DNA of 64,000 nucleotides. It comes from Verrucomicrobiia bacterium. GTDB taxonomy: Bacteria; Verrucomicrobiota; Verrucomicrobiia; Palsa-1439. A program made the translations under genes and the position numbers. This document shows, piece after piece, positions 3 through 49,189 of the stretch. Under the pieces are notes generated by a model. It saw only the letters and a program-made list of their open reading frames with translations. It was not told the origin of the DNA and searched no databases. The DNA lies in assembly GCA_050013395.1 (NCBI GenBank), contig JBEKFI010000006.1, positions 12,303 through 76,302 on the forward strand, written 5' to 3'. Each line of letters begins with the position of its first letter. Position 1 is the stretch's first letter.

Positions 3-1562
3 ATGGAGCGATGGAGTAATGGAGCGATGGGAACGACCGAACCCAGTACTCCAGCACTCCAACACTCCATCACTCCGTTTGTTGGTTTCTCTTCCATCAC
101 CAAAACGTTCGTCGGTGTGACGGCGCTGGACGGCGTCAGCCTCGCGATCGAGCGCGGCGAATGTCACGGGTTGATGGGCGAGAACGGCGCGGGCAAATCC
201 ACGCTCGGCAAAATTCTGGCGGGCATTCATCGTCCCGACTCCGGTGAAATTCGTATCGACAGCAAACCGCATCATTTCCACTCGCCCCGCGACGCGGCGC
301 GAGCTGGCGTCGGCATGGTGCACCAGGAACTGGCTTTCTGCCCCGACCTGACCGTTGCCGAAAACCTCAGTCTGGGTCAGTACCCGCGCCGGTTCGGCAT
401 CATGACCGACCGCCGCGCGATGGTGGCACGCGCGCAGAAACTTCTCGGCGAGATTGGCGTCACGCTCGACGTGCGTCAGCCGATGAAGCAACTCACCACC
501 GGCCAGGAACAACTCGTTCAGATCGCCGCTGCGGTCGGCACCGGCGCCAAGATCCTCGTCTTCGATGAACCGACCAGTTCGCTGTCGGAAGCCGAGTCGC
601 AACGCCTGTTCGAGTTGATCGAGCGGTTGCGTCAACGCGGCGTGACGATGATTTACGTCTCGCATCGGCTGCCGGAAGTGTTCCGGTTGTGCGACCGCAT
701 CAGCGTGTTGCGCGACGGGCGTTACGTCGGCACGCTCAGCCGCGCCGACGCCACACAGGACAAAGTGGTGCAGATGATGATCGGGCGCCCGCTCGCCGAC
801 TATTTCCCGCATCATCTCAGCGTCCCGCGAGGCGGGATGAAACTGCGGGTCAAAAACCTCACGTCGCCGGGAAAGTTTGAGGATATTTCCTTCGAGGTGC
901 GCGCCGGGGAGATTGTCGGCCTGGCCGGCCTCGTCGGTTCCGGCCGCAGCGAAGTGGCGCAAGCCATCTTCGGCCTGGACCCGGACGCGCGCGGCACCGT
1001 GGAAGTGGACGGCCAACCGTTGCGGCTCGGTTCCGCGCGGGAAGCGCTGCGGCGCGGCGTCGGTCTGATCCCCGAAGACCGCAAACGTCAGGGACTGGTG
1101 TTGATGATGAGCGGTCGCGGCAATTTCTCGTTGGCGATTCTGGATCGATTGCGCAGGTTCGGGTTGCTGAACCGCAAACAGGAAGCCTGCGAGGCCGGGG
1201 AGCTGTTCGCGCATCTGCGCGTGAAAACGCCGAGCATCGAGACGCCCGTGGCCGCGCTCAGCGGCGGCAACCAACAGAAGGTCGTCCTCGCCAAATGGCT
1301 CGCCGCCCACTGCCGCATTCTCATGGTGGACGAACCGACGCGCGGCGTGGACGTCGGCGCGAAGGCGGAGATTCATGGATTGATCGATCAACTCGCCAAC
1401 GAAGGCAGCGGCGTGCTGTTGATCTCCAGCGAACTGCCCGAAGTCATCAATCTTTCGACGCGCATCCTCGTGCTGCGGGCCGGCCGGATCGTTGGCGAAG
1501 TCTCGCGCGACCAGGCGAACCAGGAGACACTGATGCGGTTGATGGCGGGGATTGGGTCGTGA
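3..1562 (+). CDS. Sugar (ribose/xylose-type) ABC transporter ATP-binding protein with two nucleotide-binding domains
   Basis: Two Walker A motifs (GENGAGKST; GLVGSGRSE) and a signature motif (LSGGNQQKV). Domain order is RbsA/MglA-like. The start may be the internal ATG at 27. Confidence 0.8.
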   Translation: MERWSNGAMGTTEPSTPALQHSITPFVGFSSITKTFVGVTALDGVSLAIERGECHGLMGENGAGKSTLGKILAGIHRPDSGEIRIDSKPHHFHSPRDAARAGVGMVHQELAFCPDLTVAENLSLGQYPRRFGIMTDRRAMVARAQKLLGEIGVTLDVRQPMKQLTTGQEQLVQIAAAVGTGAKILVFDEPTSSLSEAESQRLFELIERLRQRGVTMIYVSHRLPEVFRLCDRISVLRDGRYVGTLSRADATQDKVVQMMIGRPLADYFPHHLSVPRGGMKLRVKNLTSPGKFEDISFEVRAGEIVGLAGLVGSGRSEVAQAIFGLDPDARGTVEVDGQPLRLGSAREALRRGVGLIPEDRKRQGLVLMMSGRGNFSLAILDRLRRFGLLNRKQEACEAGELFAHLRVKTPSIETPVAALSGGNQQKVVLAKWLAAHCRILMVDEPTRGVDVGAKAEIHGLIDQLANEGSGVLLISSELPEVINLSTRILVLRAGRIVGEVSRDQANQETLMRLMAGIGS

Positions 1563-9381: not shown

Positions 9382-12117
9382 GTGCGATTACACCTCGGAG
9401 GACATGAAGCCGGACTTGGATTGACGATGGAGCGATTTCTTGCTACAGGTATTGTCAGCAAGTTGCCAAGCCGAGGAACCATTCTCGAAGGCGAGGATTT
9501 TGTGCCAGGACCCCAAATCATCGAAGCGCCAGCGCCCCTTGTTACGGCCAAAGCCGTCAACGAAGGTGGCGTAAGCAGCGTATCCCCGCAGGCTGTTGTC
9601 CCCGCCGAGCGGGTGCTGACGGACGGAAAGTTCTTCCGCATCGGGGCACAGAAGTTTTACCCGAAAGGCGTCACCTACGGCACGTTCAAGCCCGATGCGT
9701 CCGGGTGCACGTTCCCCAAGCCGGAACAGGTGGAGTGGGACTTCGAGTTGATCAAGCAACTCAATGCCAATTGCGTCCGCGTTTACCACGTGCCGCCGCG
9801 CTGGTTCTTGGATTTAGCGCAGCAGCATGGGCTGAAGGTACTGATTGATTGCGTCTGGTCCAAGCACACCTGTTTCCTCGATGACCCCGAGACGATGGAA
9901 AACGCCCGACGCGCCGTGCGCCAAGCGGCGGAAACGGTGGCGGGCCATCCGGCGGTGTTCGCGCTGGTGCTGGCCAACGAGATTCCGCCGGACATTGCGC
10001 GCTGGTACGGCGCGCGCCGGATCGAAAGCTTCATCGACGACCTGGCGGCCATCGTGAAACGAATCGATCCGCAACGGCTGGTCACCTTCGTCAATTTCCC
10101 GCCCACGGAGTTCCTCCGCCCCAGCAGTCTGGACTTTGTCAGCTTTAACGTTTACCTGCACGAGCAGCGGCCGTTCTCAAACTATCTGGATCGACTCCAA
10201 AGCATCGCGGGCGACAAACCGCTGGTGCTCGCGGAGTTCGGCATCGACTCGATCCGCGAGAGCGAAGAACGCAAGGCGCAGATTCTGAGCAGCCACATCG
10301 AGATCGCCTTCCGCGCCGGGCTGGCCGGTACGTTCATTTTTGCCTTCACCGACGATTGGCACACGGGTGGTCACCAAATTGAAAACTGGTTCTTCGGGTT
10401 GACCGACCGCGAACGGCAGCCACGCCGTTCGTATCACGCGATTGCCGAGCAGTACAAGCGCGCCCCGCACTTTCCGTTGCCGGATTACCCAAAGGTAAGC
10501 GTCGTGGTGGCGAGCTACAACGGCGGGCGGACTCTGCCCGCGTGCCTGAATTCGCTGACGCATCTGAATTATCCCAACTACGAGATCATCCTCGTCGATG
10601 ACGGCTCGACCGACGACACGGCGAAGATTGCCTCGCATTACCCTTCAGTGCGAACGATTCATCAGCCCAACCTTGGCTTGAGTGCCGCCCGCAACACAGG
10701 CATTGCGGCGGCTGAGGGCGACTTGATCGCTTTTACCGACAGCGATTGTCGCGCTGACGAAGACTGGCTTTACTATCTCGTTGGCGACCTGCTGAAGACA
10801 GACGCCGCCGCCATTGGCGGTCACAACTTTCCTCCGGCGGAGGACGACTGGATTGCGGGCGCCGTGGCGGTTTCGCCCGGCGGCCCAGCGCACGTCATGC
10901 TCGATGACCGCAACGCGGAGCACATCCCCGGCTGCAACATGATGTTCTGGAAGTGGTCGCTCGAGGGGATCGAAGGATTCGATCCGCAATACCGCGCGGC
11001 GGGCGACGACGTGGACGTTTGCTGGCGGCTGCTGCAACGCGGATACAAGATCACCTTTTCGCACGCCGGTTTCGTCTGGCATTACCGCCGCAACACCTTC
11101 GCCGCCTACTTGAAACAGCAGCGCGGCTACGGCGTGGCCGAGGCGCTGCTGCGCTACAAACATCCTGAATACTTCAACAGCCTCGGCGGCATGCGCTGGC
11201 ACGGTCGGATTTACAATCCGACGCGGGCGGCGGGCGCGTTCGGGCGGTTCGTGATTTATCACGGCATCTTCGGCAGCGGCCTGTTTCAAACACTCTACAC
11301 TCCCGAACCAGCCGGATTGCTGCCGATCCTGACCAGCCTGGAATGGCACGTGTTGTTTACGTTGGGCGGGGTTTTGCTGGCGATGATGTGGCCGGCGCTC
11401 TGGCCACTGCCGGCACTAACGCTCCTGGCGAGCCTGAGTGCGGCGGCGCTGGCTGCCGCGCGCGTCGATCTGCCTCCCTGGCAACGGCGCATCTGGTCGC
11501 GGCCGCTCGTCACCGGATTGTATTTGCTTCAGCCGATCGTGCGCGGTTGGCCAAGGTACGCGCATCGATTGCGCCGATCGGAGACGCCGACGACGGCGCA
11601 CGCGACGGTGAGAGAGTTGGCCGAGCAGTACGACGGCGTGTCGAGCATTCACACGGTCAATTACTGGAACGAGCAGGGGATCGAACGCGTTGCTTTTTTG
11701 CAGAAGCTTTTGGAGGTTCTGGAGCGCGACCAGTGGCAGGCCAGCGCCGATAGCGGTTGGGACGAGCATGACGTGACGATTCACGGCGACCGCTTCACCA
11801 AGGCTGTCGTCAACACCGTTTGCGAAAACCATGGCGGCGACAAGCGATTGCTGCGGGCGCGATTGTGCGCCCGCTGGACACTGCTGGCGAAAGTGCTGCT
11901 GTGGACTGACGTCGCGCTGGTGGCGCTCTTCCTCGTGGTGGCACAGCATGCCTTGTGGGCGCTATCGGCGTGGTTGCTGGTGGTGCTGGTGGCGGCGTAC
12001 CTGCATTTGCGCTCGCATCGCACGTTGCGGTTGGCGATTGCCCTCTTGGATGTGACGGCGCAGCAGATGGGACTCACCAAGCTCACGGCTCCGAAAAAGT
12101 TTGAAAAGCCCGCGTAG
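9382..12117 (+). CDS. Fusion protein: clan GH-A (TIM-barrel) glycoside hydrolase domain + family 2 glycosyltransferase + C-terminal multi-TM region
   Basis: GH-A catalytic motifs LANEIP and LAEFG. GT2 motifs VVVASYNGG, ILVDDGSTDDT, FTDSDC. Several hydrophobic helices at the C-terminus. Start codon uncertain (possibly 9427). Confidence 0.65.
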   Translation: MRLHLGGHEAGLGLTMERFLATGIVSKLPSRGTILEGEDFVPGPQIIEAPAPLVTAKAVNEGGVSSVSPQAVVPAERVLTDGKFFRIGAQKFYPKGVTYGTFKPDASGCTFPKPEQVEWDFELIKQLNANCVRVYHVPPRWFLDLAQQHGLKVLIDCVWSKHTCFLDDPETMENARRAVRQAAETVAGHPAVFALVLANEIPPDIARWYGARRIESFIDDLAAIVKRIDPQRLVTFVNFPPTEFLRPSSLDFVSFNVYLHEQRPFSNYLDRLQSIAGDKPLVLAEFGIDSIRESEERKAQILSSHIEIAFRAGLAGTFIFAFTDDWHTGGHQIENWFFGLTDRERQPRRSYHAIAEQYKRAPHFPLPDYPKVSVVVASYNGGRTLPACLNSLTHLNYPNYEIILVDDGSTDDTAKIASHYPSVRTIHQPNLGLSAARNTGIAAAEGDLIAFTDSDCRADEDWLYYLVGDLLKTDAAAIGGHNFPPAEDDWIAGAVAVSPGGPAHVMLDDRNAEHIPGCNMMFWKWSLEGIEGFDPQYRAAGDDVDVCWRLLQRGYKITFSHAGFVWHYRRNTFAAYLKQQRGYGVAEALLRYKHPEYFNSLGGMRWHGRIYNPTRAAGAFGRFVIYHGIFGSGLFQTLYTPEPAGLLPILTSLEWHVLFTLGGVLLAMMWPALWPLPALTLLASLSAAALAAARVDLPPWQRRIWSRPLVTGLYLLQPIVRGWPRYAHRLRRSETPTTAHATVRELAEQYDGVSSIHTVNYWNEQGIERVAFLQKLLEVLERDQWQASADSGWDEHDVTIHGDRFTKAVVNTVCENHGGDKRLLRARLCARWTLLAKVLLWTDVALVALFLVVAQHALWALSAWLLVVLVAAYLHLRSHRTLRLAIALLDVTAQQMGLTKLTAPKKFEKPA

Positions 12118-13711
12118 CACCTGGTTTTGGAACGCATTGCTTCTTGCGCTGCTTGTCTGGCAGGCGGCCGTGCTGTCGCTGCACATCAACCGCCCGTGGA
12201 CGGGCCATCACGACTGGAATGGCTTCCTGTGGTCTCAGGCGGCGCACAATCACCTGCTCGCGGGACTGCGCAGCACGCTGGGCGCATCTGCTTGGAACCA
12301 TTTCGGGCCGCCACCGATCCCGCCGGAGGCGTACTACGTTCATCATCCGCCCCTGCTGTCCTTGATTTTGGCGGCGCTTTTTGCCGTGCTCGGCGAACAC
12401 GAGTGGGTCGCCCGCCTCCTGCCGGTCAGTTTCTCAGTCGTCGGCGCGATGTTGCTGTGGCTGCTCGTGCGGGAAGCCGCCGGACCGCGCGCGGCCACGC
12501 TCGCGGTTGCTGTGTTTGCCGCCTGCCCGACGGAGTTGTACTTCGGCCAGATGGTCAATTTCGAGCCGCTGATGGCGGTGTGGATGTTGGGCGCGTTGTG
12601 GTGCCTCCGCCGTTGGCAACTGACCGCCAGCAGCGCGTACCTTGCAGCGGCGCTTGGCCTCGTAGCGCTCGGGCTGTGGACGGAATGGCCGATGTACATC
12701 CTGGCTGTGGTCCTCGCCGCAATGCTGCTGGCCCGACGACCGCCCGATTGGCGCGCGTCGGGCATGCTCACCGCAATCGCACTGGCTTCAGCCATGCTGT
12801 TTCTGTTGCACATTCGGCTGGTGTGCCCCGACGCTTGGCGGGATGCGCTCGGTCAGTTTGCGTTTCGGCTCAGCGCAGACCCCGGGCTGACGAGAGAAAG
12901 CGGGGCGACGTTCACGGCAGCGGAGTGGTTCGTCCGACAGGGCCGGTTTCTGACGCGCGGGATTTTGTGGCCGCTGTGGATTCTGGCGATTGCGGGCGCG
13001 GCGATGTGCTGGCGAAAACGGCTGACCTCGGACGGCCTTCGGTGGCTTGGCTGGGCTGCCCTGAACTTGTTCAGCATGCAGACAATTTATCTGGTTGTGT
13101 GGAGGAACGTCTCGTACACGCATGAGTACGCGAGCTTCTACTTTGTTCTGCCCGTGGCGATCATGGGCGGCGTTGCGTTGGATGGTTTGCTGGGCTGTGT
13201 GCAACAGCGGTGGAGTTCGAAACGTACGCACGTTGTGGCGCATTGCTTGCTGGTCGCTGCTGTTGTCGGGCTGTGCGGATGGGGTTATGCGCAGTCGCGC
13301 GTGTATCACCACCGTTATTACCTCCTCGAATGGGGCGAACCTGAGCCCGAAGACCTGATCCCGTCTCTTGGCCGAACGATTGCGCGGGCGTGTCCCGACG
13401 ACGCAATGATCATCTGCAATTTCCCGTGGATCTCGCCGCAACTGCAGTATTACGCCCGCAAAGAGATGGCCTTTCAGAAGACCGCGTACGCCGACTGGCA
13501 GCCTTATCTGGCGACCAACCGCGCCATTGGCGGTGTCATCTGGCAGGAAGCGCAAGGAGCGGCGGAATTACTCGCGGCGCTGCCGCCAGGCCACCGGGAA
13601 ATCGTCCGCTTTGGCCCCTATAGTTTCTGTCTGTGGCGGCCTGAATCTGCAGGCACGGGCAGATCGCAGGCGCGCAGCAGGGCAGCCAGCGCCTTGTCCG
13701 AATCGAAGTAA
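12101..13711 (+). CDS. GT-C fold glycosyltransferase, family 39 / ArnT-like membrane protein
   Basis: At least 10 predicted TM helices with the typical ArnT/PMT-like N-terminal topology. Sits next to the GT2 gene. Confidence 0.55.
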   Translation: MKSPRSTWFWNALLLALLVWQAAVLSLHINRPWTGHHDWNGFLWSQAAHNHLLAGLRSTLGASAWNHFGPPPIPPEAYYVHHPPLLSLILAALFAVLGEHEWVARLLPVSFSVVGAMLLWLLVREAAGPRAATLAVAVFAACPTELYFGQMVNFEPLMAVWMLGALWCLRRWQLTASSAYLAAALGLVALGLWTEWPMYILAVVLAAMLLARRPPDWRASGMLTAIALASAMLFLLHIRLVCPDAWRDALGQFAFRLSADPGLTRESGATFTAAEWFVRQGRFLTRGILWPLWILAIAGAAMCWRKRLTSDGLRWLGWAALNLFSMQTIYLVVWRNVSYTHEYASFYFVLPVAIMGGVALDGLLGCVQQRWSSKRTHVVAHCLLVAAVVGLCGWGYAQSRVYHHRYYLLEWGEPEPEDLIPSLGRTIARACPDDAMIICNFPWISPQLQYYARKEMAFQKTAYADWQPYLATNRAIGGVIWQEAQGAAELLAALPPGHREIVRFGPYSFCLWRPESAGTGRSQARSRAASALSESK

Positions 13712-14814
13712 TCCACTACGACCGCGCGTGCGGCGCGACAATGTTTTGCGTAGTCGGAGTTGATCTTCTCCACCGCCTCGACCACGTCGTCCTCGGCGCT
13801 GAAGGCAAACAGGCCTTCGCCGCACGGGATGATTTCGCTGAAGCCTGTGTCTTGAACGATGGCGGGTTTGCCTGACGCGAGATAAACCGCCGTGCGGTCG
13901 CTGAACCAGCCGCTGCGCGCCTTGACTTCCAGGTTCACCGCCACGCTGAATTCGCCGCGCGATTGCGCGATGTACTCGAGGTACGTCCACGGCGTGGCCG
14001 TTACCTTGAGCGGATTGGCGATGCGCCAACCGGCGGCGGCGATTTGCTCGCGCGGAGCGTTCGGCCCGGCCAGGGCGATTTCAAACATTGGCCCGACCCG
14101 CTTGGGCAAATCGAAGATCCGTATGAACTCGACGTCCTTCTGCCCGTACTCCTCGCCATTGTAAATGACCGGTTTGCGCGCGCTCCAGCTCATGATTGTC
14201 GTGAAGAACTTCGCCTCCGGTGTAAACCGCGGCGTCACCAACTCCAGCGCCATCGGCCAGCGGGTTGGACGCCAGTTCAGGCCGTGCGTCGGGATCGGGC
14301 AATCCACCTTGCCGATGCGCTCGCCGATGGTGAAATGAAATTGAAAATCGTACGGCGAGGCGTAGCCGTCGCAGGACGGCGCAGGCGTGGCAGGCATGCC
14401 GAACTGCGTGAAGCCGGGATCGGCATCCCAAAAGATGCGCTTCTTGCAGTCGCGAAACTGATCCAGCCAGGTCACGGCCGCTACGCTGAGCAGGAAATCG
14501 GCGTCGCAGCAAACGCGTCCCAATTCCTCGCGCGACATGCCGTGGTAATTGCCGTCCGCGTCCACGTAGCACCATCGGTTCACGCCGATCTTTTCGAACG
14601 CGCGGCGCAGCTCGGCGATGCCGTAGGTCGGATCATTGGTCGAGCTGTTGGTGCGCGGGTCATAACACGAGGACGGCCATCCGTACTGCTCGGCGAACAC
14701 CACCTCGTAGCCAAGCCTCTGCAACCCGACGAGAAAATGGAGCTGGGAAAGCACATGGCCGCCCAGCGGGTAGCGCACCAGATAACCGGCGACAATGGCC
14801 ACCGGCTTGCTCAT
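13618..14814 (-). CDS. CgeB-like glycosyltransferase family protein (paralog 1)
   Basis: The C-terminal segment FSDRTAVYLASGKPAIVQDTG...GEGLFAF resembles the CgeB / Glyco_trans_1_2 domain. Tandem paralog of 14811..16016. Confidence 0.45.
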   Translation of the reverse strand: MSKPVAIVAGYLVRYPLGGHVLSQLHFLVGLQRLGYEVVFAEQYGWPSSCYDPRTNSSTNDPTYGIAELRRAFEKIGVNRWCYVDADGNYHGMSREELGRVCCDADFLLSVAAVTWLDQFRDCKKRIFWDADPGFTQFGMPATPAPSCDGYASPYDFQFHFTIGERIGKVDCPIPTHGLNWRPTRWPMALELVTPRFTPEAKFFTTIMSWSARKPVIYNGEEYGQKDVEFIRIFDLPKRVGPMFEIALAGPNAPREQIAAAGWRIANPLKVTATPWTYLEYIAQSRGEFSVAVNLEVKARSGWFSDRTAVYLASGKPAIVQDTGFSEIIPCGEGLFAFSAEDDVVEAVEKINSDYAKHCRAARAVVVDYFDSDKALAALLRACDLPVPADSGRHRQKL

Positions 14815-16016
14815 ACGCCGACGCGCTCCAGCATCGCCCCCAACACCTTGCGCGCGTCAAACATCTGCTCGGCTATTCCGCGGGCTGCGGCACTGTGCCT
14901 CGCGTAATCGGCATTGATGTGATCGATGCCCGCGATCGCTTCTTCCGCCGTGCTGAACGCAAAAAGCCCGTTGCCGGTCGGATAAATCTTGCTCCAGTCT
15001 GTGTCCTGCAACACGCAGGGTCGCCCGAGCGCCAGATAACACGCGCTGCGGCAACTGAACCAGCCGCTGCGCGATTTGACGTAGCCTTCCTTGGCCACGC
15101 TCCATTCGCCCTTGGAGTTGCCCAAGTAATCGCGGTAGGTCCACGGATCAGGGAGATGCTCGCTCGGCTCGATGATCCGCCAGCCTTTTTGTTGGAGGAG
15201 TTCTGTCGGCCGCTTCATGCCCGGCCCCATGCCCATCGCGATCTCAAACTTCTGCGTCGTCTTCTGAGGCAGGTCAATAAACTTCATGAACTCGACATCT
15301 TTTTGTCCCCAGGTCTCTCCGCCGTACTCGCAGCCCTTGTAAGAAACCCAGTTCATCACCGTGGTGAATACATCGCGGACATCTTCCGTGGGAGCGGCGT
15401 CCCCGCCGCGATTCTGGCCCGGTCGCGGCGGGGACGCCGCTCCCACAAACGGCCACCAATCCAGCACGATCGGCTGGCGCGTCGGAATCCATTTCAATCC
15501 TGCCATCGGCACACGGCAATCAGGCGCTCCGATGTTCTCGGCGAACGTGAAATGAAAATCGTGGGCGTGGATGCGATCGATCACGCCTTGGTTGCCCGAC
15601 ACCAGCGCCACCTGCGTGAACATCGGATCGGAATCGATAAAAACCTTTCTGGGGATTGCGACGTACTCCGGCCGCAACCAGCCGCAGCCGGACACGTTCA
15701 GGTAAACGTCGGCGCTGGCGCAGAATTTCCTGGCCTCGGCCTCGCTAACGCCATGGTAACTGCCGTCGGGCGCGTTGCGGTAAATCCAGCGGTCGCCGAG
15801 GCTGAGCCGGTTCATCACGTCGCCGAGATACTTGACGTTGTAGCTGCAATCGTCGCTGACGGTGTTCTTGATCGGGTCGTACGGCCACGTCTCCGTGTCT
15901 TCGAGATACCACACCTCATGCCCGAGCAGGCGAAATCCCTCGACATACTGCAGGTAATCCCACGCCACCCCGCCGAACGCATACTGCCCGACCAGCCCTG
16001 TCACAATGATCCGCAT
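14811..16016 (-). CDS. CgeB-like glycosyltransferase family protein (paralog 2), carrying an in-frame palindromic-element insertion
   Basis: Same family as 13618..14814. Contains the extra segment GAASPPRPGQNRGGDAAPT, encoded by the palindromic element at 15388..15446, which is absent from the paralog. Confidence 0.45.
   Translation of the reverse strand: MRIIVTGLVGQYAFGGVAWDYLQYVEGFRLLGHEVWYLEDTETWPYDPIKNTVSDDCSYNVKYLGDVMNRLSLGDRWIYRNAPDGSYHGVSEAEARKFCASADVYLNVSGCGWLRPEYVAIPRKVFIDSDPMFTQVALVSGNQGVIDRIHAHDFHFTFAENIGAPDCRVPMAGLKWIPTRQPIVLDWWPFVGAASPPRPGQNRGGDAAPTEDVRDVFTTVMNWVSYKGCEYGGETWGQKDVEFMKFIDLPQKTTQKFEIAMGMGPGMKRPTELLQQKGWRIIEPSEHLPDPWTYRDYLGNSKGEWSVAKEGYVKSRSGWFSCRSACYLALGRPCVLQDTDWSKIYPTGNGLFAFSTAEEAIAGIDHINADYARHSAAARGIAEQMFDARKVLGAMLERVGV
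15388..15446. repeat. RPE-like palindromic element (23-bp inverted termini GTGGGAGCGGCGTCCCCGCCGCG) inserted in-frame in a CDS
   Basis: Near-perfect inverted repeat gtgggagcggcgtccccgccgcg ... cgcggcggggacgccgctcccac. The same termini occur at 48106..48175. Confidence 0.7.
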
Positions 16017-17021: not shown

Positions 17022-17573
17022 CTAACGATAGGTCTTGTCGTCGACACGGCTTAGGTCGATTCCGTCCTTGAAAACTCCGACCGTCACGACAGCGAAGGTG
17101 AACACGCTGGTACCGGCCTCCAGGTGCCCGCCGAACGCCTTGTCGGCGTCGGTCATGGTGAGGTGGGCATGAACGCGGCCGTCGATCACATATCCGTTCA
17201 TGCTCACGATGTCGGCCGGGCCCGCGGGGTTTTTCACGTAGATGTTCTTGGAGGGGAAGGTTCCATTGCTGACCGTGTGGAAATGATAGCTCCGGACCGA
17301 TCCGGCTGCCGCCAGGATCACGGCGTTGCGGATCTTGTGCTGTTTCACCATGCGCTCCAGACCTGCAAGAAGGTCGGTTTGATTCTTGAAGCGCAGCACC
17401 AAGACCCGCTCGAATTGCCCGCTGAGCGCATACACCTCCGGCACCGTGTCGCTGTTCGGTTTCGAATCCTCCGCCGGCGTGGTGGCGTTGGTCACCTCGG
17501 TGCGGGTCGGTTGGGCTGCCGCCGTGCTCATGATCGCCAGAAAACCTAGAATCTGAATCAGTCTACGCATGGG
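17022..17573 (-). CDS. DUF296 / PPC (PCC) domain protein with signal peptide
   Basis: Signal-peptide-like N-terminus MRRLIQILGFLAIMSTAAA. The C-terminal region resembles PPC-domain proteins. Confidence 0.5.
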   Translation of the reverse strand, partial: PMRRLIQILGFLAIMSTAAAQPTRTEVTNATTPAEDSKPNSDTVPEVYALSGQFERVLVLRFKNQTDLLAGLERMVKQHKIRNAVILAAAGSVRSYHFHTVSNGTFPSKNIYVKNPAGPADIVSMNGYVIDGRVHAHLTMTDADKAFGGHLEAGTSVFTFAVVTVGVFKDGIDLSRVDDKTYR

Positions 17574-17729
17574 ATGTCTCCTTGTTCGGTGGATGATGGT
17601 TGAGCCGTATCGTTCATAAACTTGTCCTTGCGAGCCTGTGTGAACTAGGAGCGCATCGTCGCGGCAAGAATGCCGCTCCCACAACGATACAGTTTGTCCG
17701 CACAGCAAGCAGCTCGTGCAATGCACGGG

Positions 17730-19172
17730 TTAAAATTTCATCGAGAGCAGAAACTCGGCGTTGGACTGGGTCTTCTTGAGCTTCTCGACGATCAATTCCA
17801 TCGCTTCAATCGGCGGGACACCGCTCAGCGCCTTGCGCAGAATGTAGATGCGCTCAAGCTCGTCAGGATGATAGAGCAGCTCCTCTTTGCGCGTCCCCGA
17901 CTTTTCGATGTTAATCGCGGGGAAGATGCGCTTGTCCACCAAATGCCGGTCTAGGCACAGCTCCATGTTGCCCGTGCCCTTGAATTCCTCAAAGATGACT
18001 TCGTCCATGCGCGAGCCTGTGTCAACCAGGGCCGTGGCCATGATCGTCAGCGTGCCGCTTTCCTCGATGTTGCGGGCCGAGCCGAAGAATCGCTTGGGCT
18101 TGTGCAACGCGTTGGCGTCCACACCGCCCGACAGGATTTTGCCCGAGTGCGGCGCCAACGTGTTGTAGGCGCGGGCCAGACGCGTGATCGAGTCGAGCAG
18201 GATCACGACGTCCTTCTTGAATTCGACAAGGCGTTTGGCTTTCTCCAGCACCATCTCGGCGACTTGCGCGTGCCGCTCGGGCGGCTCGTCGAACGTGGAA
18301 CTGATGATTTCGGCATCGACGGTGCGCTTGAAGTCGGTGACTTCCTCGGGCCGCTCGTCGATGAGCAGCACGATCACAATCGCTTCGGGATTGTTGGTCA
18401 GAATCGCATTGGCGATTTTCTGCAGCAGAATGGTCTTGCCCGTGCGCGGCGGCGCGACGATCAGGCCGCGCTGGCCCTTGCCGATCGGGCAGAACAAGTC
18501 CAGCACGCGCGTGTTGATCTCCTCCGGCCTCGTTTCGAGGATGAATCGCTTGGTCGGGAAGTACGGCGTGAGGTTGTCGAACTGGATCTTTTCCTTGGCT
18601 TTCTCGGGGTTTTCCCGGTTGACCGCCTGCACCTTCAACAAGGCAAAGAACCGCTCCTTGTCCTTTGGCGGACGCACTTGTCCGGAGACAACGTCACCCG
18701 TCTGCAACTCGAACCGTCGGATCTGTGAGGGCGACACGTAGATGTCCTCGGGGCAGGGCAGATAATTGTAGCTGGGCGAACGCAGGAATCCGAAGCCGTC
18801 AGGCAGGATTTCCAGCACACCCTCGCCGAACATCGTGCCGTTGCGCTCGGCGTTTTTCTTGAGAATCTGGTGGATGATCTCGTGTTTCTTGAGCGTGGCG
18901 ACGGTTTCGACTCCCATGGTGCGCGCCATTTTCTGGAGCGCAGGCATGGACATCTCCTGGAGTTTGCTCAGATCGAGCATCTCACCGGGCGGTTGTTCCG
19001 CAGCGCGCTGCTCCGAAGGGGCTTCCTTCTCCGCCACCGCGGCTGGAGCATCGATTGTTTCCACCGCAGCGGCGGCCTCCTCACCGTTTCCGGCGCTGGA
19101 ACCGTTCTTCACTTCTGTTTCGTTCGGCGTCTCGACCGCCTGTTCCGTCGTCTTAGTTTTTGCTCGGGGCAT
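17730..19172 (-). CDS. rho: Transcription termination factor Rho
   Basis: Rho N-terminal and CSD motifs, Walker A PPRTGKT, strongly conserved RecA-like core. Total length 480 aa. Confidence 0.9.
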
Positions 19173-31090: not shown

Positions 31091-31198
31091 AGCGCCGCTA
31101 CATCGGCACGACGAAGGTTCTGGAGAGGATCGAAATGTAGCCGCACCCTTCAGGGTGCGCTCGTCGGCATCTGAACCCGCGCAGGCTGAAGCCTGCGG

Positions 31199-34100
31199 CT
31201 ACGGAACCAATCGGATGCGGTAGAAGCGCGAAGGCGCGGTGGTCGCGGCACCTATGTCAAGATAGTTGGTGGTCGCGTCGCCACTGTCGGGAATGATAAT
31301 CAGTCCGCTGATGTCACTGAAGTTGGTCGTGAAACTGCCGTCGGCGTCGGAGCCGGCCGCCTGCACCGCATTGGTCCGCCCGCCCGCCGTCATCCAAGTG
31401 ATCTCCACATCGTCGCCTTCCTGCACGATGCCGGTAATGCGCAGCCCTGACGCGCTGTTGGTCGGATCGGTGCCGGCCTGAAACTCCTGTAGGTTGGTGA
31501 GTCCGTCGCCGTCGGGGTCGCCACTCGCGCCATCGTTGCCGCTCGAAGACTTCGGATTGAGACCGTAATTCATCTCCCAAACGTTCGGGAGGCCATCACC
31601 GTCGGGGTCGCCGTTGGAACCATTGGCCCCCGTGGGGTCGAACATGTCAAGTCCGTTTGCCAACTCCCAACCGTTTGGCAATCCATCGGCGTCCGCATCG
31701 AAGGACGAAACATAATTGACGCTGAGGAAGAAGACTGTTCCGCCGGTATGTATGAACCGGGAGCAGGCATTGGTCACGACCAGTCGGTCCACCACGAGCG
31801 CGCCGCCGCTGACTGTGAACGTGCCGCCGCGAACGTCCAGCGTTGCGGTGTGCGCCGCGTTAGTAACGTACAGTTTCCCGCCGGCGAGCGTTACCACGCC
31901 CGCTCCGCCGCCGCTGCAGTTCCCGATGACGAAATCGGACGACACTGTGTTGGTGCCACCGACCTGTGTGAATCTGCCACCCGCCGAGGCAGTGATGTCA
32001 CTCACATGCAAACTGCGAGCGAGGACGGTGCCGTTGGATTGTGTTAAGAACCCCGTCTCGGGCAGACCAACCGTGATCGTTCCATTGGTGACAAGTAACT
32101 GACCGCCCGTGATCCAGACTGTCGAGGTGCTGCCCGAGTTGAATTGCCCCATGGCTAGATCGTTTTGAACGGTAAGCTTACCGCCTGCGACAAGAAGCGT
32201 GGGGGAAGATTGATACGATGCTTGGAGCGCGACACCGCGCGCCAGCATATTGCCGTTAGAGACTACCAACGTGCCACGGCTCTGGCCGATGATCACGTCT
32301 CCGTTTGTCACGGTGAGCTGTCCGCCGGTCACCCACACCGTGCCTGTTGCACTCTCGCGCGCAATCCGCAGTTCGGAGCCAAGGGTCATGGTGCCGCCTG
32401 CAACGGTCAGCGTTCCCTTCCCGCCAAGATAGCCAACGCCGTAGTAACCGAAGTCGGTCGTGACAATGCCGTTGGATACGACGATCTGGCCGAAGGTGTT
32501 GTAGTTGCCGAAGAACACAGGCGCGTCGAAGTTTCCACCATTGACAGTGACGATGGCGGGGGCCGATGGGTTGGTGTTTCCGATGTTTAAATAGCGAAAC
32601 GCAGGCGAGATCAGAGTCCCTCCGGTCATCACGTCGAGGCTGCCGCGGACGCTCGCCCCGTTACAACGCAACTCGCCGCCGTTTACCGTGATCTTTCCAC
32701 GCGGATCGGCCAAAGTCCCGACAAGCATTTGCGCGTTGGCGATGGCCAGCACCCCGCCGTCAATTCTCACGGCTCCGTTGGCAACGGTGAGGTTGCTGGT
32801 GTAGGTGCCGCCATTGACCTGCACAGTCGAGTTCGTGATAATCAACAAGCCATTCGTGCTGATCGTGCACTGATTGATAATAGTCAGTGGCGTGTTCGTG
32901 CCCGCATTGGACAGCAGCAATGTATTCGTCGAGCCGGTCGGCGAGGAAAGCGCCAGGTTACTGATCGTCATCGTGCTGGGAAAACTTCCTGATGTACTCG
33001 CATCAATCGTGACAGTCTTGGTGGTGGCGTTGGTGATCAACACCGCCGAGCGACTGGTGGAAGGAACCCTCCCGAACGCCCAGTTGTCGCTGCCTTCCCA
33101 TTTGTCGCTGCCTGTATTGGTCCAGCGACTTTGGTCAGGCGGATGAGACGCCGCGTTGTTCGGCTGCGTGCCCGCTTGGTATTCTTCGAAATTGCTGAAC
33201 CCGTCCCCATCCGGATCGCCACTGGCTCCGTCGTTGCCCGCAGCGGAAAGCGGGTTCAATCCGTACGCGGTTTCCCAACCATTCGGCAGACCGTCGCCAT
33301 CCGCATCGCCGTTGATGTCGAGGGTGGTGGCACTGGCTTGGTTGCTGTAGTCGGAATTCCCTCCCGAGTTATACGCTCGGACGCGGTACCAGTAGGTCGT
33401 GGTCGCCGACAATCCTGTGTCGCTGTAGATCGTAACGTTGCTCGACACGGTTGCGATCTGCGTCCACGTCCCGGGCGTGCCGCTGTTGTCGGGGGCGCGC
33501 TCGATCTTGAAGCCGTCCTCGTTGGCCGCGTTATCCGTCCACCCTAGGTTGATCTGATTGATGGATACCGCCGTTGCTGTCAGACTCGACGGCGGCGCGG
33601 GCGGAAGTGGCAGAGTCGTCGCGCTCGCTTGGTTGCCATACGGCGAATTGCCGCCGGTGTTGTAGGCTCGGACGCGATACCAGTACTTCGTGTCCGCCGA
33701 CACATTCGTGTCGCTGTAGGTCGTGACATCCGCGCCTACAGTTGCGATCTGCGTCCAAGTACCCGGAACTCCGCCATTGTCTGGTGCCCGCTCGGTCAAA
33801 AAACCGGTCTCGTCGCTGGAGTTATCAGTCCATGACAAGTTGATCTGGTTCGTAGAGACGGCGATCGCTGTGAGGGCGGTCGGGGCGGCGGGACTGCACG
33901 TCATCGCGAGACCATGGTACTCACCCGCGGCGATGCTCACCACGCCCATCAATCCATCCGGCGGCGTTATCGAAGTGCCCCAGCTAACGACCGTGCCTTC
34001 ACCTGTCAACGCCAAATTGTAAGAACCGCTGGTGCTGATGGCGACAACGTTGGTCAAACCGTTGGGCGGCGTTGCCTGGCCCTGATCGTTGCGACCCCAA

Positions 34101-40914: not shown

Positions 40915-41030
40915 TCCCGCAGTCGCGGGAGAATGGCCTCTGCTGAAATGCTCACGCGCGACTGAGAAAGGCCGAGGTTCTTCGCTTCGCTCAGAATGAC
41001 AAACAGAGCGGTTTGTGTTATGACTCGCGC

Positions 41031-42569
41031 ATGGCCTACGATTCGTTGCGGGAGTTCGTGCAGAGATTGGACGCGGCTGGTGAACTGAAACGCGTCTCCG
41101 TCGAGGTCGATCCTGTTCTGGAGATCACCGAGTTCGCCCACCGCGAGATGAAGTCGCCCCATGGCGGCAAGGCGTTGCTGTTCGAGAAGTGCAAAGGGTC
41201 AAGTTTCCCGCTGCTCATCAACGCTTACGGGTCTTGGAAACGGATGGCGATGGCGCTCGGCGTGAACGATGTCGAAGATGTCGCACGCGAGTTGGAAAGT
41301 TTGCTCAAAGCCAAGCCACCGACATCTTTCCAGGAAGCCATCGCGCTGCTCGGCACGGCGCTGGAGTTGCGGCATGCGAAACCAAAGGTCGTGGAGCGTT
41401 CCGCCTTCGCCAAGGCTTCGGCGGACAGGGGAGCGTGTCAGGAGATGGTGCATGATCTGAGCGGGCAGGCCGGTCGCGGCAAGAATGCCGCTCCCACGGG
41501 GCTGGAGCTTTTGCCGATACAGAAATGCTGGCCGGAGGATGCGGGGCGGTTCATCACGTTGCCGCTGGTTATCACCCGCGATCCCGATACCGGCACGCGC
41601 AATGTCGGCTGCTACCGGATGCAGGTGATCGATGGGCGCACCACCTTCATGCACTGGCAACTGCAGAAAACGGGTGCGCGTCATTGGCGGCGGCATGTCG
41701 GGTTGAGGCAGCGGATGACCGTGGCCGTGGCGCTCGGCGGCGATCCGGTTTATGCGTTTGCGGCGGCCGCGCCGTTGCCGGATGGCATCGACGAATTCAT
41801 GTTCGCCGGTTTCCTGCGGAAGAAATCCGTGGAGATGGTGAAGTGCCAGACGAACGATTTAGAGGTGCCCGCCGATTGCGATTTCGTGCTGGAGGGTTAT
41901 GTGGAGCCGGACGAGAAGCTGGAGATGGAAGGCATGTTCGGCGATCACACAGGTTACTATTCGCTGCCCGAGCCGTATCCGAAATTCCACGTCGAGCGGA
42001 TCATGCACCGCCGCGATGCAATTTATCCGAGCACGATCGTCGGCGTGCCGCCGATGGAAGACTTTTACATGGGCGCGGCCAGCGTGCGGATCTTCCTGCC
42101 GGTGTTCAAGATGAATTTCCCCGAAATCGTGGACATGGCGTTGCCGGCCGAGGGCGTGTTTCACAATCTCGTCTTTGTCTCCATCAAGAAAGCGTTCCCG
42201 TATCACGCGATGAAGGTGATGCACGGGTTGTGGGGCATGGGGCAGATGATGTTCACGAAAATCATCGTGGTGGTCGACCACGACGTGAACGTGCACGACA
42301 CCAGCGAGATGTTATTCCGCCTCTGCGCCAATATCGATCCCGAGCGCGACATCATTTTCACCAAGGGGCCTGCGGACGTTTTGGATCATGCGACGCCCGT
42401 GCTCGGCTGCGGGAGCAAAATCGGCATCGACGCCACGCATAAACTACCAAGCGAAGCCAACACGCGTCTTTGGCCGCCCCCGATCAAGATGGATGACGCG
42501 GTGAAGAAACGCGTGGGAGAACTCGTGAGAGCGTTGGAGCGTGGCAGCGTTAGAGCGTGGCAGCGTTAG
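41031..42569 (+). CDS. UbiD-family decarboxylase
   Basis: UbiD family N-terminal, core and C-terminal conserved blocks (e.g. FITLPLVITRDPDTG..NVGCYRMQV). Contains an in-frame half-copy of the palindromic-element terminus, encoding GRGKNAAPTG. Confidence 0.75.
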   Translation: MAYDSLREFVQRLDAAGELKRVSVEVDPVLEITEFAHREMKSPHGGKALLFEKCKGSSFPLLINAYGSWKRMAMALGVNDVEDVARELESLLKAKPPTSFQEAIALLGTALELRHAKPKVVERSAFAKASADRGACQEMVHDLSGQAGRGKNAAPTGLELLPIQKCWPEDAGRFITLPLVITRDPDTGTRNVGCYRMQVIDGRTTFMHWQLQKTGARHWRRHVGLRQRMTVAVALGGDPVYAFAAAAPLPDGIDEFMFAGFLRKKSVEMVKCQTNDLEVPADCDFVLEGYVEPDEKLEMEGMFGDHTGYYSLPEPYPKFHVERIMHRRDAIYPSTIVGVPPMEDFYMGAASVRIFLPVFKMNFPEIVDMALPAEGVFHNLVFVSIKKAFPYHAMKVMHGLWGMGQMMFTKIIVVVDHDVNVHDTSEMLFRLCANIDPERDIIFTKGPADVLDHATPVLGCGSKIGIDATHKLPSEANTRLWPPPIKMDDAVKKRVGELVRALERGSVRAWQR

Positions 42570-43058: not shown

Positions 43059-43345
43059 CGCTCAAACGCTCTGACGATCCGTTTATTTGTCCGAACTGCG
43101 GTGCAGATGTGCCGGCCGGAGCGAAGGCGTGTCCTGAGTGTGGATCGGATGAAAAGACCGGTTGGTCCGACAAAACCATCTACGACGGGACTGGCATCGA
43201 AGACCCGGACGAAGACGATTTCAACTACGAAGATTGGAGGCGGCGCGAGTCTGGCGGCGCACCCCACAAGAGCAGTATGGGCTGGCTCTGGTGGCTCGTG
43301 GCAGTGGTGGTGTTGGTGATGGTTGTGTGGTTGATGATTAGGTAG
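43055..43345 (+). CDS. Zinc-ribbon protein with C-terminal TM helix
   Basis: CPNCG...CPECG zinc-ribbon motif. C-terminal helix WLWWLVAVVVLVMVVWLMI. Confidence 0.4.
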   Translation: MTLKRSDDPFICPNCGADVPAGAKACPECGSDEKTGWSDKTIYDGTGIEDPDEDDFNYEDWRRRESGGAPHKSSMGWLWWLVAVVVLVMVVWLMIR

Positions 43346-43425
43346 GGGCGGACCGCCGGGCCGCCCGCAACTTGATGACAATCGGACACGGCGCGCCCGG
43401 CGGTCGCGCCCTACCCGAGATGTTG

Positions 43426-45627: not shown

Positions 45628-48600
45628 ATGAAACATTCTGACTTCGTCCATCTGCACCTGCACACCGAGTACAGCCTGCTCGATGGGGCGTGCCGCATTG
45701 ACGACGTGGTGGAGAAGGCGCACGCGGCAAAGATGCCGGCGGTGGCGATCACCGATCACGGCAACATGTACGGCGCGATCGATTTCTACAAGGCGGCGTC
45801 GGAACGCGGCATCAAACCGATCATCGGCTGCGAGGCGTACATCGCGCCGGGCAGCCGGCTCGACAAGAAATCCAGCAACGCGCGGGACGCGGCGTATCAT
45901 CTGGTGCTTCTGGCCAAGGACGAGGTCGGCTACAAGAATTTGATCAAGCTCATCACGGCGGCGCATCTCGAAGGGTTTTACTACAAACCGCGCATCGACA
46001 AGGAAATTCTGGCGCAACACGCGAAAGGGCTGATCGGGTTCACGTCCTGCCTCAAGGGCGAGGTGCCGAACAAGATCAAAGATGAGCAGATCGAACAGGC
46101 GAAGGCCGCGCTGGACGAGTACCGCCACATTTTCGAGCCGGGCGATTATTACGTCGAACTCCACAATCACGGGATTGAAGATCAACGAAAGGTCAATCGC
46201 GTGCTCATCGAATGGGCCAAGGAATTCAACCTGCCGCTTGTGGCGACCAACGACGTGCATTACATCGAGCGCAAGGATTGGGAGGCGCATGATTGCCTGA
46301 TTTGTTTACAGACGCAATCGCTGGTGGCCGACGAGAAGCGGATGCGGTACGCGGCCCAGCAGTTTTATCTGCGCACGCCGGAAGAGATGCACGAATTGTT
46401 CAAGGAGACACCGGAGGCGATCCGCAACACTCTGGCGGTCTCCGAGAAATGCAACGTGCTTCTGGAGTTCGGCAAACTTCGGTTTCCCGTTTATCAGCCG
46501 CCCGAGGGGTTGGGCCGCGAACAATACCTACGGCAGTTGTGCGAACAGGGATTGCGGGAACGCTATGGTATCGAATGGAAGAAACCGAAGTCCGAACAGG
46601 AAAAGGCCCTCATCGAACGGTTGGAATACGAACTGAAGGTGATCGAGAAGACCGGGTTCGCCAGTTATTTCCTGATCGTCTGGGACTTCGTACATTTCGC
46701 CAAGAGTAAAGCCATTCCGGTCGGACCGGGCCGCGGCAGCGCCGCAGGCAGTCTCGTGGCGTACCTGTTGCGCATCACCGACATCGATCCGTTGCGGTAC
46801 AACCTGCTATTCGAGCGGTTCCTCAATCCCGAGCGCGTGTCGCCGCCCGACATCGACATGGATTTCTGTTACAACCGGCGGCCCGAGGTCATCGATTACG
46901 TCCGCCACAAATACGGCAACGATCACGTGGCGCAGATCATCACGTTCGGCACGCTCGGCGCCAAGATGGTCGTGCGCGACGTGGGCCGCGTGCTGGGATT
47001 GAGCTACGGCGAATGCGACCGCATCGCGAAGATGATCCCACCCGACATCGGGATGACACTGGCGAAAGCGCTGGACATCAGTCCCGAACTCAAGAACGCC
47101 TATCAAAACGAAGACATGGTGCGGCGCGTGATCGGCTACGGGTTCACGCTCGAAGGTCTCGCGCGCAACGCCAGCACGCACGCGGCGGGCGTGGTCATCG
47201 GTGCCGAACCATTGATCAATGTCGTGCCCCTGACCACCGGGACGAACTCGAATGAAGTCGTCACGCAGTACTCGATGAACCCGCTTGGCGATCTCGGATT
47301 GCTGAAGATGGACTTCCTCGGGCTGAAAACGCTGACCGTCATCAAGGACGCGCTCGATCTCGTCGAGCAAACGACGGGCAAGCGCATCGACATCGACAAG
47401 ATTCCGCTCGACGACGCGAAGGCGTTCGACCTGCTCAACAAGGCCAATACTATCGGCGTGTTCCAGCTTGAATCACAGGGGATGCGCGATCTGTGCCGGC
47501 GCATTGGGGTGGACTCGATTGACGTGATCATCGCGCTGATCGCGCTGTTTCGTCCCGGGCCGATGAACATGCTCGACGATTACGTGAACCGCAAACACGC
47601 GAAGACGAAGGTCGAGTACGATCATCCGCTGCTGGAGCCGATCCTGAAGGAGACATTCGGCGTGTTCGTGTATCAGGAGCAGGTCATGCAGGCGGCCAAC
47701 GTGCTGGCGGGATACTCGCTCGGCGGCGCCGATATTCTGCGACGCGCAATGGGGAAGAAAAAGCCCGCCGAGATGGAGAAGCAGCGCGAGGTCTTCATCA
47801 AGGGTTGTCACGAGAAAAACAAAATCCCGCGCGGCAAAGCAGAGAGAATCTTCGAGACACTCGCCAAGTTTGCCGGGTACGGCTTCAACAAGTCGCACAG
47901 CGCGGCGTACGCGGTCGTCGCCTACCAGACCGCGTGGCTGAAGGCGAATTACCCGGTCGAGTTCATGGCGGCGTTGCTATCCAACGAACTGGCCAACACC
48001 GACAAAATCCGGCTTTTCATCAACGAATGCCGCCGCATGGGCATTGAAGTGTTGCCGCCCGACGTGAACCAGAGCGGCGTGCGGTTTACGGTGCATCTTC
48101 GCAGTGTGGGAGCGGCGTCCCCGCCGCGACCGGTGGCCGGGCCTGAGACAATCGCGGCGAGGACGCCGCTCCCACAAGACAAGGAGCCTACTAAAGCAAA
48201 ACATCATCAAGGCGCGCGACGCAGGCGGAAAACTCAAATCGTTCAGCGACTTCTGCGAGCGCGTGGACCTGCGCATGGTCAATCGCAAGGTGCTGGAAAG
48301 CTTGGTGAAGTGCGGCACGTTCGATTCGCTCGATCCGCAGCGCGCGCGGCTGTATGCGGAGATTGACTACCAGATGAATCGCGCCAGCAGCCTCCAACGC
48401 GACCGCGAACGCGGACAGGCAGCGCTGTTCGACGTCGAGCCGGTCAACGCGCGCAAACAGGCGACCGGTAAACCGCCCGAGGTCGAGTGGTCGCAAAGCG
48501 AGATGCTGGCGTTTGAGAAGGAACTGCTGGGCTTTTACGTCACAGGACACCCGTTGTCGCAATACGCGGACATCCTTCGTCGCTACGAGTTGGCGTCGTC

Positions 48601-49189
48601 GGCCCGGCTGGCCCAGTTGCAGGACGGGCAGACGACACGCATCGGCGGCATCGTCAGCAAACTGCAGCCGAAGATGACGAAACAGGGAAAACCGATGGCC
48701 ATCGTGACGTTGGAGGATTTGGATGGTTCAGTGGAAGTCCTGATCTTTCCCGAGGCGTACGCGAAGTGCTCGATCCATTTGCGCGCGGATGCTGCGATCT
48801 TTGTCTGCGGGACAGTCAATCTGCGCGAGGACAAGCCGAAGATTTTCGCCGACCATATCATTCCGCTCGACGAAGTCCCGAAGCGGTTCACCAAGGCCGT
48901 CCACATCCGCCTGCCCGCCGAGACGACCGAAGAAGCGGCGCTGACGCGCGTGCGGGAGGCGTTGCAAGCGCATCAAGGCAATGTGCCGGTGATGTTTTGC
49001 TTCATGTACGACGATGGCAAGCTGGTGTTCATCGAGACCCACGACAACTTTTTCGTTACGCCGTCAGAGGCGCTGGTGCAGGAACTGGAACGGATCCTCG
49101 GCGAAGACACCGTCTGGCTGAAGGTGGACACCGAGAAGATGGCCAACGGAAATGGCTCGCGTCAGGAGAGTCGGTTCGCCAAGGAGTGA
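45628..49189 (+). CDS. dnaE: DNA polymerase III alpha subunit, reading frame interrupted near 48100 by a palindromic element
   Basis: PHP domain start MKHSDFVHLHLHTEYSLLDG, polymerase core, YGFNKSHSAAY, an OB-fold region and a C-terminal domain. The N-terminal 912-aa ORF (45628..48366) and the C-terminal 361-aa ORF (48104..49189) are in different frames. Confidence 0.85.
48106..48175. repeat. RPE-like palindromic element (23-bp inverted termini) inside dnaE
   Basis: gtgggagcggcgtccccgccgcg-(24 nt)-cgcggcgaggacgccgctcccac. It occupies the position where the conserved HhH (GIGAIKGVG-type) motif is expected. Length 70 bp, so it shifts the frame by +1. Confidence 0.65.

Follow-up and report, generated by a model that had tools for sequence, protein, structure and literature searches.

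A verrucomicrobial genome carries, inside a gene for a glycosyltransferase-like protein, a 59-nt palindrome that is very probably a doublet of repetitive extragenic palindromic (REP) sequences: a REPIN, or head-out dimer of the type found in bacterial interspersed mosaic elements (BIMEs), belonging to the GTAG superfamily. The palindrome occupies positions 15388-15446 of a 64,000-nt stretch (hereafter the window) of the metagenome-assembled genome (MAG) of a Verrucomicrobiia bacterium (GenBank contig JBEKFI010000006.1, positions 12,303 to 76,302). The peptide that it specifies is a real insertion, as comparison of the host protein with its orthologues and with a tandem paralogue confirmed. The same REP recurs in other genes of the window and in other genomes, in several of which it is found beside genes for REP-associated tyrosine transposases (RAYTs). 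An earlier reading of the window, made from its sequence only, had described a selfish palindrome analogous to the Rickettsia palindromic elements (RPEs). A repeated, selfish-type element inserted in frame is what we found as well; kinship with RPEs is not, since the features are those of a GTAG-type REP that flanks RAYT genes.

The palindrome and its copies in the window

The segment 15388-15446 reads gtgggagcggcgtccccgccgcg-N13-cgcggcggggacgccgctcccac, and the 23-nt inverted termini around 13 nt that had been reported there are indeed present; a repeat finder extends them to 24-nt arms that are 100% complementary, with 11 nt between. The doublet folds as single-stranded DNA (ssDNA) with -38.8 kcal/mol (z = -9.1 against shuffles) and as sense mRNA with -61.9 kcal/mol. 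Each arm is not just one half of a palindrome: by itself it forms the hairpin GCGGCG-TCCC-CGCCGC. The arm is laid out as a GTGG head (GTAG variant), two unpaired bases (GA), a 6-bp stem (GCGGCG/CGCCGC), a 4-nt loop and a GCGA tail. Aligning 376 arms (148 + 228) of the window and of fetched loci gives the consensus GTGGGAGCGGCGTCCCCGCCGCGA, and conservation ends exactly at the GTGG head, with none beyond it. The stem variants covary and all of them pair (GGCG/CGCC, GGCA/TGCC, GACA/TGTC and GACC/GGTC, in plain counts that ignore kinship), and the inverted arms of REP dimers are spaced by 11-24 nt. Searching the window against Rfam gave no match at gathering score, only a sub-threshold resemblance to a plant microRNA precursor hairpin (30.8 versus 79 bits).

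The terminus is not confined to this site. With up to three mismatches the 23-mer occurs four times in the window, where 0.00 occurrences are expected, and its 11-mer core, GCCGCTCCCAC, occurs six times (0.11 expected), which amounts to two dimers and two singlets within 64 kb of genome versus none expected (Table 1). The dnaE doublet has 25-nt arms that are 96% complementary (one mismatch) around a 22-nt loop, and folds with z = -8.2. Both half-copies of the sequence-only reading, in ubiD and between genes, were recovered at their positions; they share the compensated hairpin variant GCGGCA-AGAA-TGCCGC. An alignment gap of 8 residues in Escherichia coli UbiD coincides exactly with GRGKNAAP in that of the window. 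The extragenic copy lies between two minus-strand genes, 48 nt downstream of the stop codon of rho (17730-19172) and upstream of a PCC-domain gene (17022-17570). Three of the four copies in the window are thus intragenic, and the "extragenic" of the REP definition does not describe them. No direct repeats flank the two doublets of the window (CCGTTT...GGAAGA and CGCAGT...AAGACA) or the copy in contig L119, described below.

Table 1. Coordinates of the REP copies in the window and of the genes discussed with them
Feature	Position	Strand	Remarks
REP doublet (REPIN; head-out "HH" dimer)	15388..15446		Left REP 15388-15411, 11-nt loop, right REP 15423-15446
Host coding sequence, 401 aa	14811..16016	-	GT-B-fold glycosyltransferase-like; NCBI name "glycosyltransferase family 1 protein"
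Tandem paralogue, 398 aa	13618..14814	-	38% identical to the host; its start overlaps the stop of the host coding sequence by 4 nt
Single REP	17660..17682	+	Extragenic; stem variant GGCA/TGCC
Single REP	41475..41497	+	In frame in ubiD (41013-42569); stem variant GGCA/TGCC; read as RGKNAAPT
dnaE	45628..49189	+	Split in this assembly into open reading frames 45628-48366 and 48104-49189, in different frames
Second REP doublet, same family	48106..48175		In dnaE, just upstream of the helix-hairpin-helix motif; arms 48105-48129 / 48152-48176; read as VGAASPPRPVAGPETIAARTPLPQ

The window UbiD also has a second in-frame insert (41391-41430), whose 11 residues, VERSAFAKASA, are missing in E. coli UbiD and whose DNA, TCCGCCTTCGCCAAGGCTTCGGCGGA, is another small palindrome. 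Four further palindromic doublets of different families, all seemingly extragenic, are situated at 31137-31202, 43341-43415, 50067-50120 and 61713-61802, and two of them have GTAG heads (GTAGCCGCACCC... and GGTAGGGGCGG...). The presence of these four doublets indicates that the genome carries several REP families.

Two insertion sites in coding sequences

In the host gene the minus-strand reading of the doublet is VGAASPPRPGQNRGGDAAPT, residues 191-210 of the protein, located in the linker between its two Rossmann-like halves. The insertion had been called in-frame, and the reading of these residues is in frame; the palindrome itself, however, is 59 nt long, no multiple of three, and the 20 codons need one flanking G to be added. 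There is no stop codon in any frame of the element. The peptide had been said to be absent from the tandem paralogue, which has a gap at exactly this position. We parsed the loop between LDWW and RDVFTT in 89 of the best 120 host homologues: in 56 of these 89 it measures seven residues and holds no insert, in a protein of 383 aa. Relative to these orthologues the host has gained 18 residues (20 codons inserted). At the DNA level the empty site, as seen in contig L120, reads TGGTGG-ATCGTGTCAGCGCAACCGCCG-CGCGAC, and the window has at the same site CCGTTT, the 59-nt palindrome and then GGAAGATGTC, with no target duplication.

The host protein has no Pfam match, and Foldseek relates its AlphaFold model to GT-B/GT4 glycosyltransferase structures with probability 1.0. 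The model has a predicted local distance difference test score (pLDDT) of 85.8 and a predicted template-modelling score (pTM) of 0.88; the only segment with pLDDT below 50 comprises residues 194-210, which belong to the insert and form a coil between the Rossmann-like halves. Placing the insert in a loop, which had been raised as a question, agrees with this model. As to the neighborhood, a membrane glycosyltransferase of the PMT_2 (dolichyl-phosphate-mannose-type) family adjoins the two tandem GT-B-fold paralogues, which lack Pfam matches (12101-16016), and the 398/401-aa family is an uncharacterized one with more than 5,800 matches.

The same linker receives other elements in related genes. 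Loops of 24-41 residues occur in at least 24 homologues and are of at least eight unrelated kinds, such as EGRASARP...LDGARPS, VVGRFPAP...SQSRPTT, LSKPAAGGRVEG...EMLRQAQHD and SLSPPRGEGVRRTGEG. The DNA of four of these kinds (contigs L121-L124) is in each case a distinct palindromic element. The nearest relatives of the window, L121 and L122 (78% identity at third codon positions), have other elements in the loop; the left junction of the L122 element is the same as that of the window. By contrast, the more distant L119, a contig of the Joint Genome Institute (JGI) with 65% third-position identity, contains the same REPIN, with 57 of 59 nt identical and the same 13-nt spacer, between different flanks. 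Since the nearest relatives hold other elements and a distant one holds the same, the turnover of elements, by gain or exchange, outpaces the divergence of the genes. In L124 a RAYT-like gene (273-1007, minus strand) lies directly upstream of the glycosyltransferase-like orthologue; it scores below the NCBIfam cut-off, has an insert of about 40 residues of its own and is not flanked by the REP of the window doublet.

The second full copy that the sequence-only reading had placed in dnaE is present at 48105-48176. The gene, however, the only dnaE seen in the window, is not intact but frameshifted by a 50-nt deletion: the conserved stretch IRFGLAAIKNVGE is missing, and NCBI annotates the second open reading frame (ORF) separately; an exact look-up of the first ORF returned no record. 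In the JGI contigs L126, L155 and L161, which come from other samples, the identical 70-nt dnaE REPIN is followed by AAGACAAGGAGCCTACTAAAGC and then by 50 nt, encoding IRFGLAAVKNVGEIAV, that the window lacks at 48197/48198. With these 50 nt dnaE reads through (...HLRS-VGAASPPRPVAGPETIAARTPLPQ-DKEPTKAIRFGLAAVKNVGEIAVENIIK...) and its helix-hairpin-helix (HhH) motif is intact; the HhH stretch AIRFGLAAVKNVGEIAV is gone from the window with the deletion. Because the three sister contigs keep the REPIN in frame, the REPIN is an in-frame insert and the frame break is a separate 50-nt deletion. These contigs rule out the idea that the dnaE REPIN itself breaks the frame, for which translational bypass or a split polymerase had been considered. 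The deletion could be either a real inactivating event or an assembly error. A likeness between the spacer of the dnaE doublet and native HhH-coding DNA is better explained as a G+C-rich chance match, given that this spacer and that of the glycosyltransferase copy are length variants.

A second hot spot for several families is the DnaE loop that directly precedes the HhH motif: between FTV and IRFGLAAIK (around 48100 in the window), at least five other palindrome-like inserts are found among relatives (P0121, P0122, P0143, P0160 and P0170). Separately, dnaE is broken into four ORFs (L125, 653-4182) on a 925-kb assembly of the "contig_" type, and several other long contigs have truncated dnaE calls; fragmentation of dnaE on such long contigs probably reflects indel errors of long-read assemblies and not biology.

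Occurrence in other genomes and association with RAYT genes

An exact scan for the 23-mer, with one genome per species, returned at least 117 stretches. The matches listed include isolates (Thiohalocapsa halophila, Methyloversatilis, Desulfosarcina widdelii, Pseudoxanthomonas and Amphritea) and MAGs labelled Verrucomicrobiota, Latescibacterota, Omnitrophota and others. The 23-mer was also found in contig CAVYJM010000017.1 (L085), binned as a Thermoplasmata archaeon; either contamination of the bin or a true occurrence across domains would account for this. In Thiohalocapsa the REP units form BIME-like tandem arrays of alternating orientation with conserved linkers; alternating orientation and conserved intervening sequences (L036) rule out a clustered regularly interspaced short palindromic repeat (CRISPR) array. 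The Thiohalocapsa halophila arrays consist of at least seven REP/inverted-REP pairs with a period of 85-91 nt (L036, 5950-6560; L006, 170-720; L017 and L080, jointly with a deltaproteobacterial MAG), and in the deltaproteobacterial MAG a 230-nt unit with one REPIN is repeated three times.

Among the fetched loci, six contain a gene for a Y1/HUH transposase, and four of the six score above the cut-off of the NCBIfam model NF047646, "REP-associated tyrosine transposase". The RAYT gene has the identical REP on both sides in Methyloversatilis (L084), a deltaproteobacterial MAG (L092) and Thiohalocapsa (L027), and on one side only in L026. In L131, a contig from a peat metagenome, a RAYT likewise stands between REPs at 2952 and at 3531/3583; its homologues bear the JGI name "REP element-mobilizing transposase RayT". 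The RAYT genes beside the identical 23-mer in L084, L092, L027 and L131 match both NF047646 and Pfam Y1_Tnp (PF01797). RAYTs that stand beside the identical REP are 35-48% identical to one another, across proteobacterial classes, so that the DNA site is more conserved than the enzyme. In L131 (2952-3604) a single REP also lies within the RAYT gene, in frame, where it is read as ESRRGRRSHE and follows the HUH motif MPDHIHV, and the neighboring BioF-like gene holds a tail-to-tail REP dimer; because the REPs are free of stop codons, the two genes are fused into one ORF of 649 aa.

A copy was judged to fall inside a gene if a frame stayed open for 60 codons to its left and right and both flanks had the coding pattern of G+C at third codon positions (GC3). 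A simpler stop-to-stop ORF test was useless at 60% G+C, with 75-82% of random positions and 80% of the Thiohalocapsa arrays passing, and was therefore replaced by the open frame and GC3 periodicity. Among the matches listed, 7 of the 13 units in Verrucomicrobiota loci and the window were intragenic and in frame, against 52% of random 60-nt spans; with Pfam domains on both sides taken into account, 11 of the 13 were. In Thiohalocapsa the test was passed by one of 92 units (random spans, 49%) and in the other genomes by two of 100 (random spans, 38%). The same REP is therefore intragenic in 1-2% of cases in Proteobacteria, whereas it is common inside genes in Verrucomicrobiota. The verrucomicrobial hosts are MutS, UvrA, AcrB, MiaA, FeoB, a DUF255 protein, a U32 peptidase, the glycosyltransferase-like protein, UbiD and DnaE; a further copy, near the end of contig L104, lies in DnaX and is outside the count of the automated test.

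In JGI metagenomes a first scan with a 25-mer covering the spacer and inner arms gave no matches, and a scan with a 28-mer found 66 loci with 72 units, dozens of the contigs coming from one sample (Ga0247727). Here 20 units were intragenic by the strict test, 28% versus 45% for random positions, which is a depletion; the hosts include a BioF-like aminotransferase, AcrB, RecD-like and DinG-like helicases, a MiaB-like enzyme and a chromate transporter. Wherever the domain architecture could be resolved with Pfam, most inserts fell between domains or repeats, and some within a single domain match. The frames in use mostly give V-G-A-A-S-P-P-R / R-G-G-D-A-A-P-T or G-S-G-V-P-A-A, and the Arg-rich frame W-E-R-R-P-R-R-D occurs only in two ORFs (one without a Pfam match, the other unscanned).

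Origin of the inserts and comparison with known systems

REPs carry no gene and would be moved in trans by a RAYT, an HUH/Y1 transposase that acts on ssDNA and recognizes the folded REP with its head. A RAYT of the lineage would have copied REPs and REP doublets around the genome, and one copy may have landed in the linker of the GT-B glycosyltransferase-like protein or replaced an earlier palindrome there. The gene stays open because all frames of the element are free of stop codons and the net change in length preserves the frame; the element would then be translated as a disordered Gly/Ala/Ser/Pro-rich loop. Survival may act as a filter, insertions with a net length that is a multiple of three persisting in flexible linkers and others being lost, and REPs may in addition prefer sites that already hold a REP. 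If only frame-preserving copies in permissive interdomain linkers survive, different palindrome families would pile up at the same few sites. We infer, then, that the doublet was mobilized by a RAYT in this genome and that the insert is translated and neutral. The long hairpin in the mRNA could possibly affect expression. Several observations weigh against this account. A purifying filter predicts depletion within genes, and the intragenic share in Verrucomicrobiota, in a small sample, is not below the random expectation (7 of 13 versus 52%). The head is GTGG, whereas the E. coli enzyme requires GTAG, so the chemistry of cleavage may differ. Finally, neither regular expressions nor a hidden Markov model built for the purpose revealed a RAYT gene in the 64-kb window.

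Other explanations of the inserts are less probable than a REP doublet moved by a RAYT. That the palindrome is native coding sequence, a low-complexity linker palindromic by chance, has a practically negligible probability, although the peptide is rich in Gly, Ala, Pro and Ser and does lie in a linker: most orthologues and the paralogue do without it, the same DNA is present in unrelated genes and between genes, and it is 97% conserved between two genes that share 65% of their third positions. We give hardly any credence to an assembly artefact either. The window does come from a short-read MAG, and the deletion beside the second copy is suspicious, but the same REPIN recurs in the same loop of the independent contig L119, and that of dnaE is identical in L126, L155 and L161; for the elements an artefact is contradicted, and only the 50 nt missing from dnaE may be due to one. 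Just as improbable is membership in, or homology with, an RPE family. RPEs behave in the same manner, as palindromes lying in frame in genes that are kept open, dnaE included (PMC3733652); but the head here is of the GTGG/GTAG type while RPE-4 and RPE-6 are CGTC-tagged and RPE-1 is longer (PMC3733652), the identical REP flanks RAYT genes in Proteobacteria, and the host is a verrucomicrobial MAG.

The small size and the two inverted termini of 23-25 nt would also suit a miniature inverted-repeat transposable element, namely a form of an insertion sequence shortened by deletion, which a DDE transposase mobilizes with duplication of the target site. This origin is very unlikely, as no direct repeat flanks either copy, solitary arms occur and fold by themselves, arms form tandem arrays of alternating orientation and flank Y1 and not DDE transposase genes, and about 1.5 Mb of fetched loci contained no full-length insertion sequence with these termini and target-site duplications. 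A benefit to the host, with the intragenic copies kept as 24-27-bp mRNA hairpins that serve as RNase III or ribosome-pausing signals, or as evolvable linkers, is unlikely, if less so. The very stable mRNA hairpin (-61.9 kcal/mol), a conservation far above that of synonymous sites, an intragenic share in Verrucomicrobiota as high as at random positions and the predominance of frames giving G/A/S/P-rich peptides all speak for it. Against it, the host genes are functionally unrelated, different element families replace each other at one site, and recent insertion from a homogeneous pool would explain the conservation equally well. Somewhat less doubtful, although still speculative, is the idea that interdomain linkers of Verrucomicrobiota, such as the GT-B linker and the DnaE loop before the HhH motif, are landing pads where one REP family takes the place of another in a REP-targeted replacement by RAYT-type single-strand recombination, and that the lineage tolerates or exploits the variable linkers and long mRNA hairpins that result. 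If true, it would explain why the intragenic share is near random here and 1-2% for the same REP in Proteobacteria.

The interpretation of the palindrome as a REP doublet makes it one more case of REPs decorating proteins, and its value as a discovery is small. For annotation, it suggests that G/A/S/P-rich inserts of 8-25 residues in verrucomicrobial proteins should be read as mobile-element scars that mark permissive linkers, not as family-specific motifs. The sequence-only reading had presented the element as a notable find in a high-GC bacterium, but in-frame intragenic REPs were published for this phylum in 2013 (PMC3733652). The present data make a modest addition: one linker serves as a hot spot for several families, the placement of one and the same REP contrasts between phyla, and a REP has stayed conserved beside RAYTs that diverged.

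The link to RPEs is one of analogy and not a family relationship. RPEs are described as in-frame selfish palindromes in genes that remain functional, with inserts thought to lie in surface loops (Ogata et al. 2000, as summarized in PMC3733652), and insertion in frame into genes that stay open is what the two have in common. RPE-4 and RPE-6 belong to a CGTC-tagged superfamily, and RPE-1 is a longer element (PMC3733652). The sequences are unrelated, the phylum is another and RPEs have no RAYT association, a separation that follows the published description and not an alignment.

Closer parallels are found in the REP systems. In E. coli, TnpA_REP acts on ssDNA, needs the GTAG head and a stem mismatch, and cuts between C and T inside CTAC, the complement of GTAG (Ton-Hoang et al. 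2012, NAR 40:3596; PMC3333891). The E. coli REP/BIME elements likewise have a head and a hairpin, pairs of REP and inverted REP with variable linkers, tandem arrays (here in Thiohalocapsa) and an enzyme of the same family; they differ in that their hairpin is imperfect, whereas the present family has a GTGG head and a perfect stem. REPINs consist of two inverted REPs with a short spacer that form one long hairpin, and are non-autonomous, extragenic and tied to a RAYT that is itself flanked by REPs (Bertels and Rainey 2011, PLoS Genet 7:e1002132; PMC3116915). The inverted pair forming one hairpin and, in other genomes, the RAYT flanked by the same REP agree with this description. Unlike such systems, three of four window copies are intragenic, the 64-kb window is without a RAYT, and one REP is common to RAYTs that are only 35-48% identical.

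The closest counterpart is found in the same phylum. REP singlets and dimers inside ORFs, the dimers encoding 20-30 residues, are most numerous in the verrucomicrobium Opitutus terrae (Di Nocera, De Gregorio and Rocco 2013, BMC Genomics 14:522; PMC3733652), and genes for replication and repair, among them uvrA and dnaE, are frequent hosts. In that study the GTGG head predominates in the O. terrae family GTAG-20, and in the families GTAG-1 and GTAG-2 two unpaired bases separate head and stem and the 3-nt tail is conserved. The present element resembles the elements of that study in its GTAG-type head palindrome, unpaired dinucleotide, conserved tail, HH dimers, in-gene inserts and replication and repair hosts; the likeness to the 24 families rests on these described features, the arm sequence not being found in the supplements of PMC3733652. 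Where the earlier study reports a single case of different REPs at about one site (recB in two Xanthomonas species), at least eight kinds of element share the glycosyltransferase linker here and at least five share the dnaE site.

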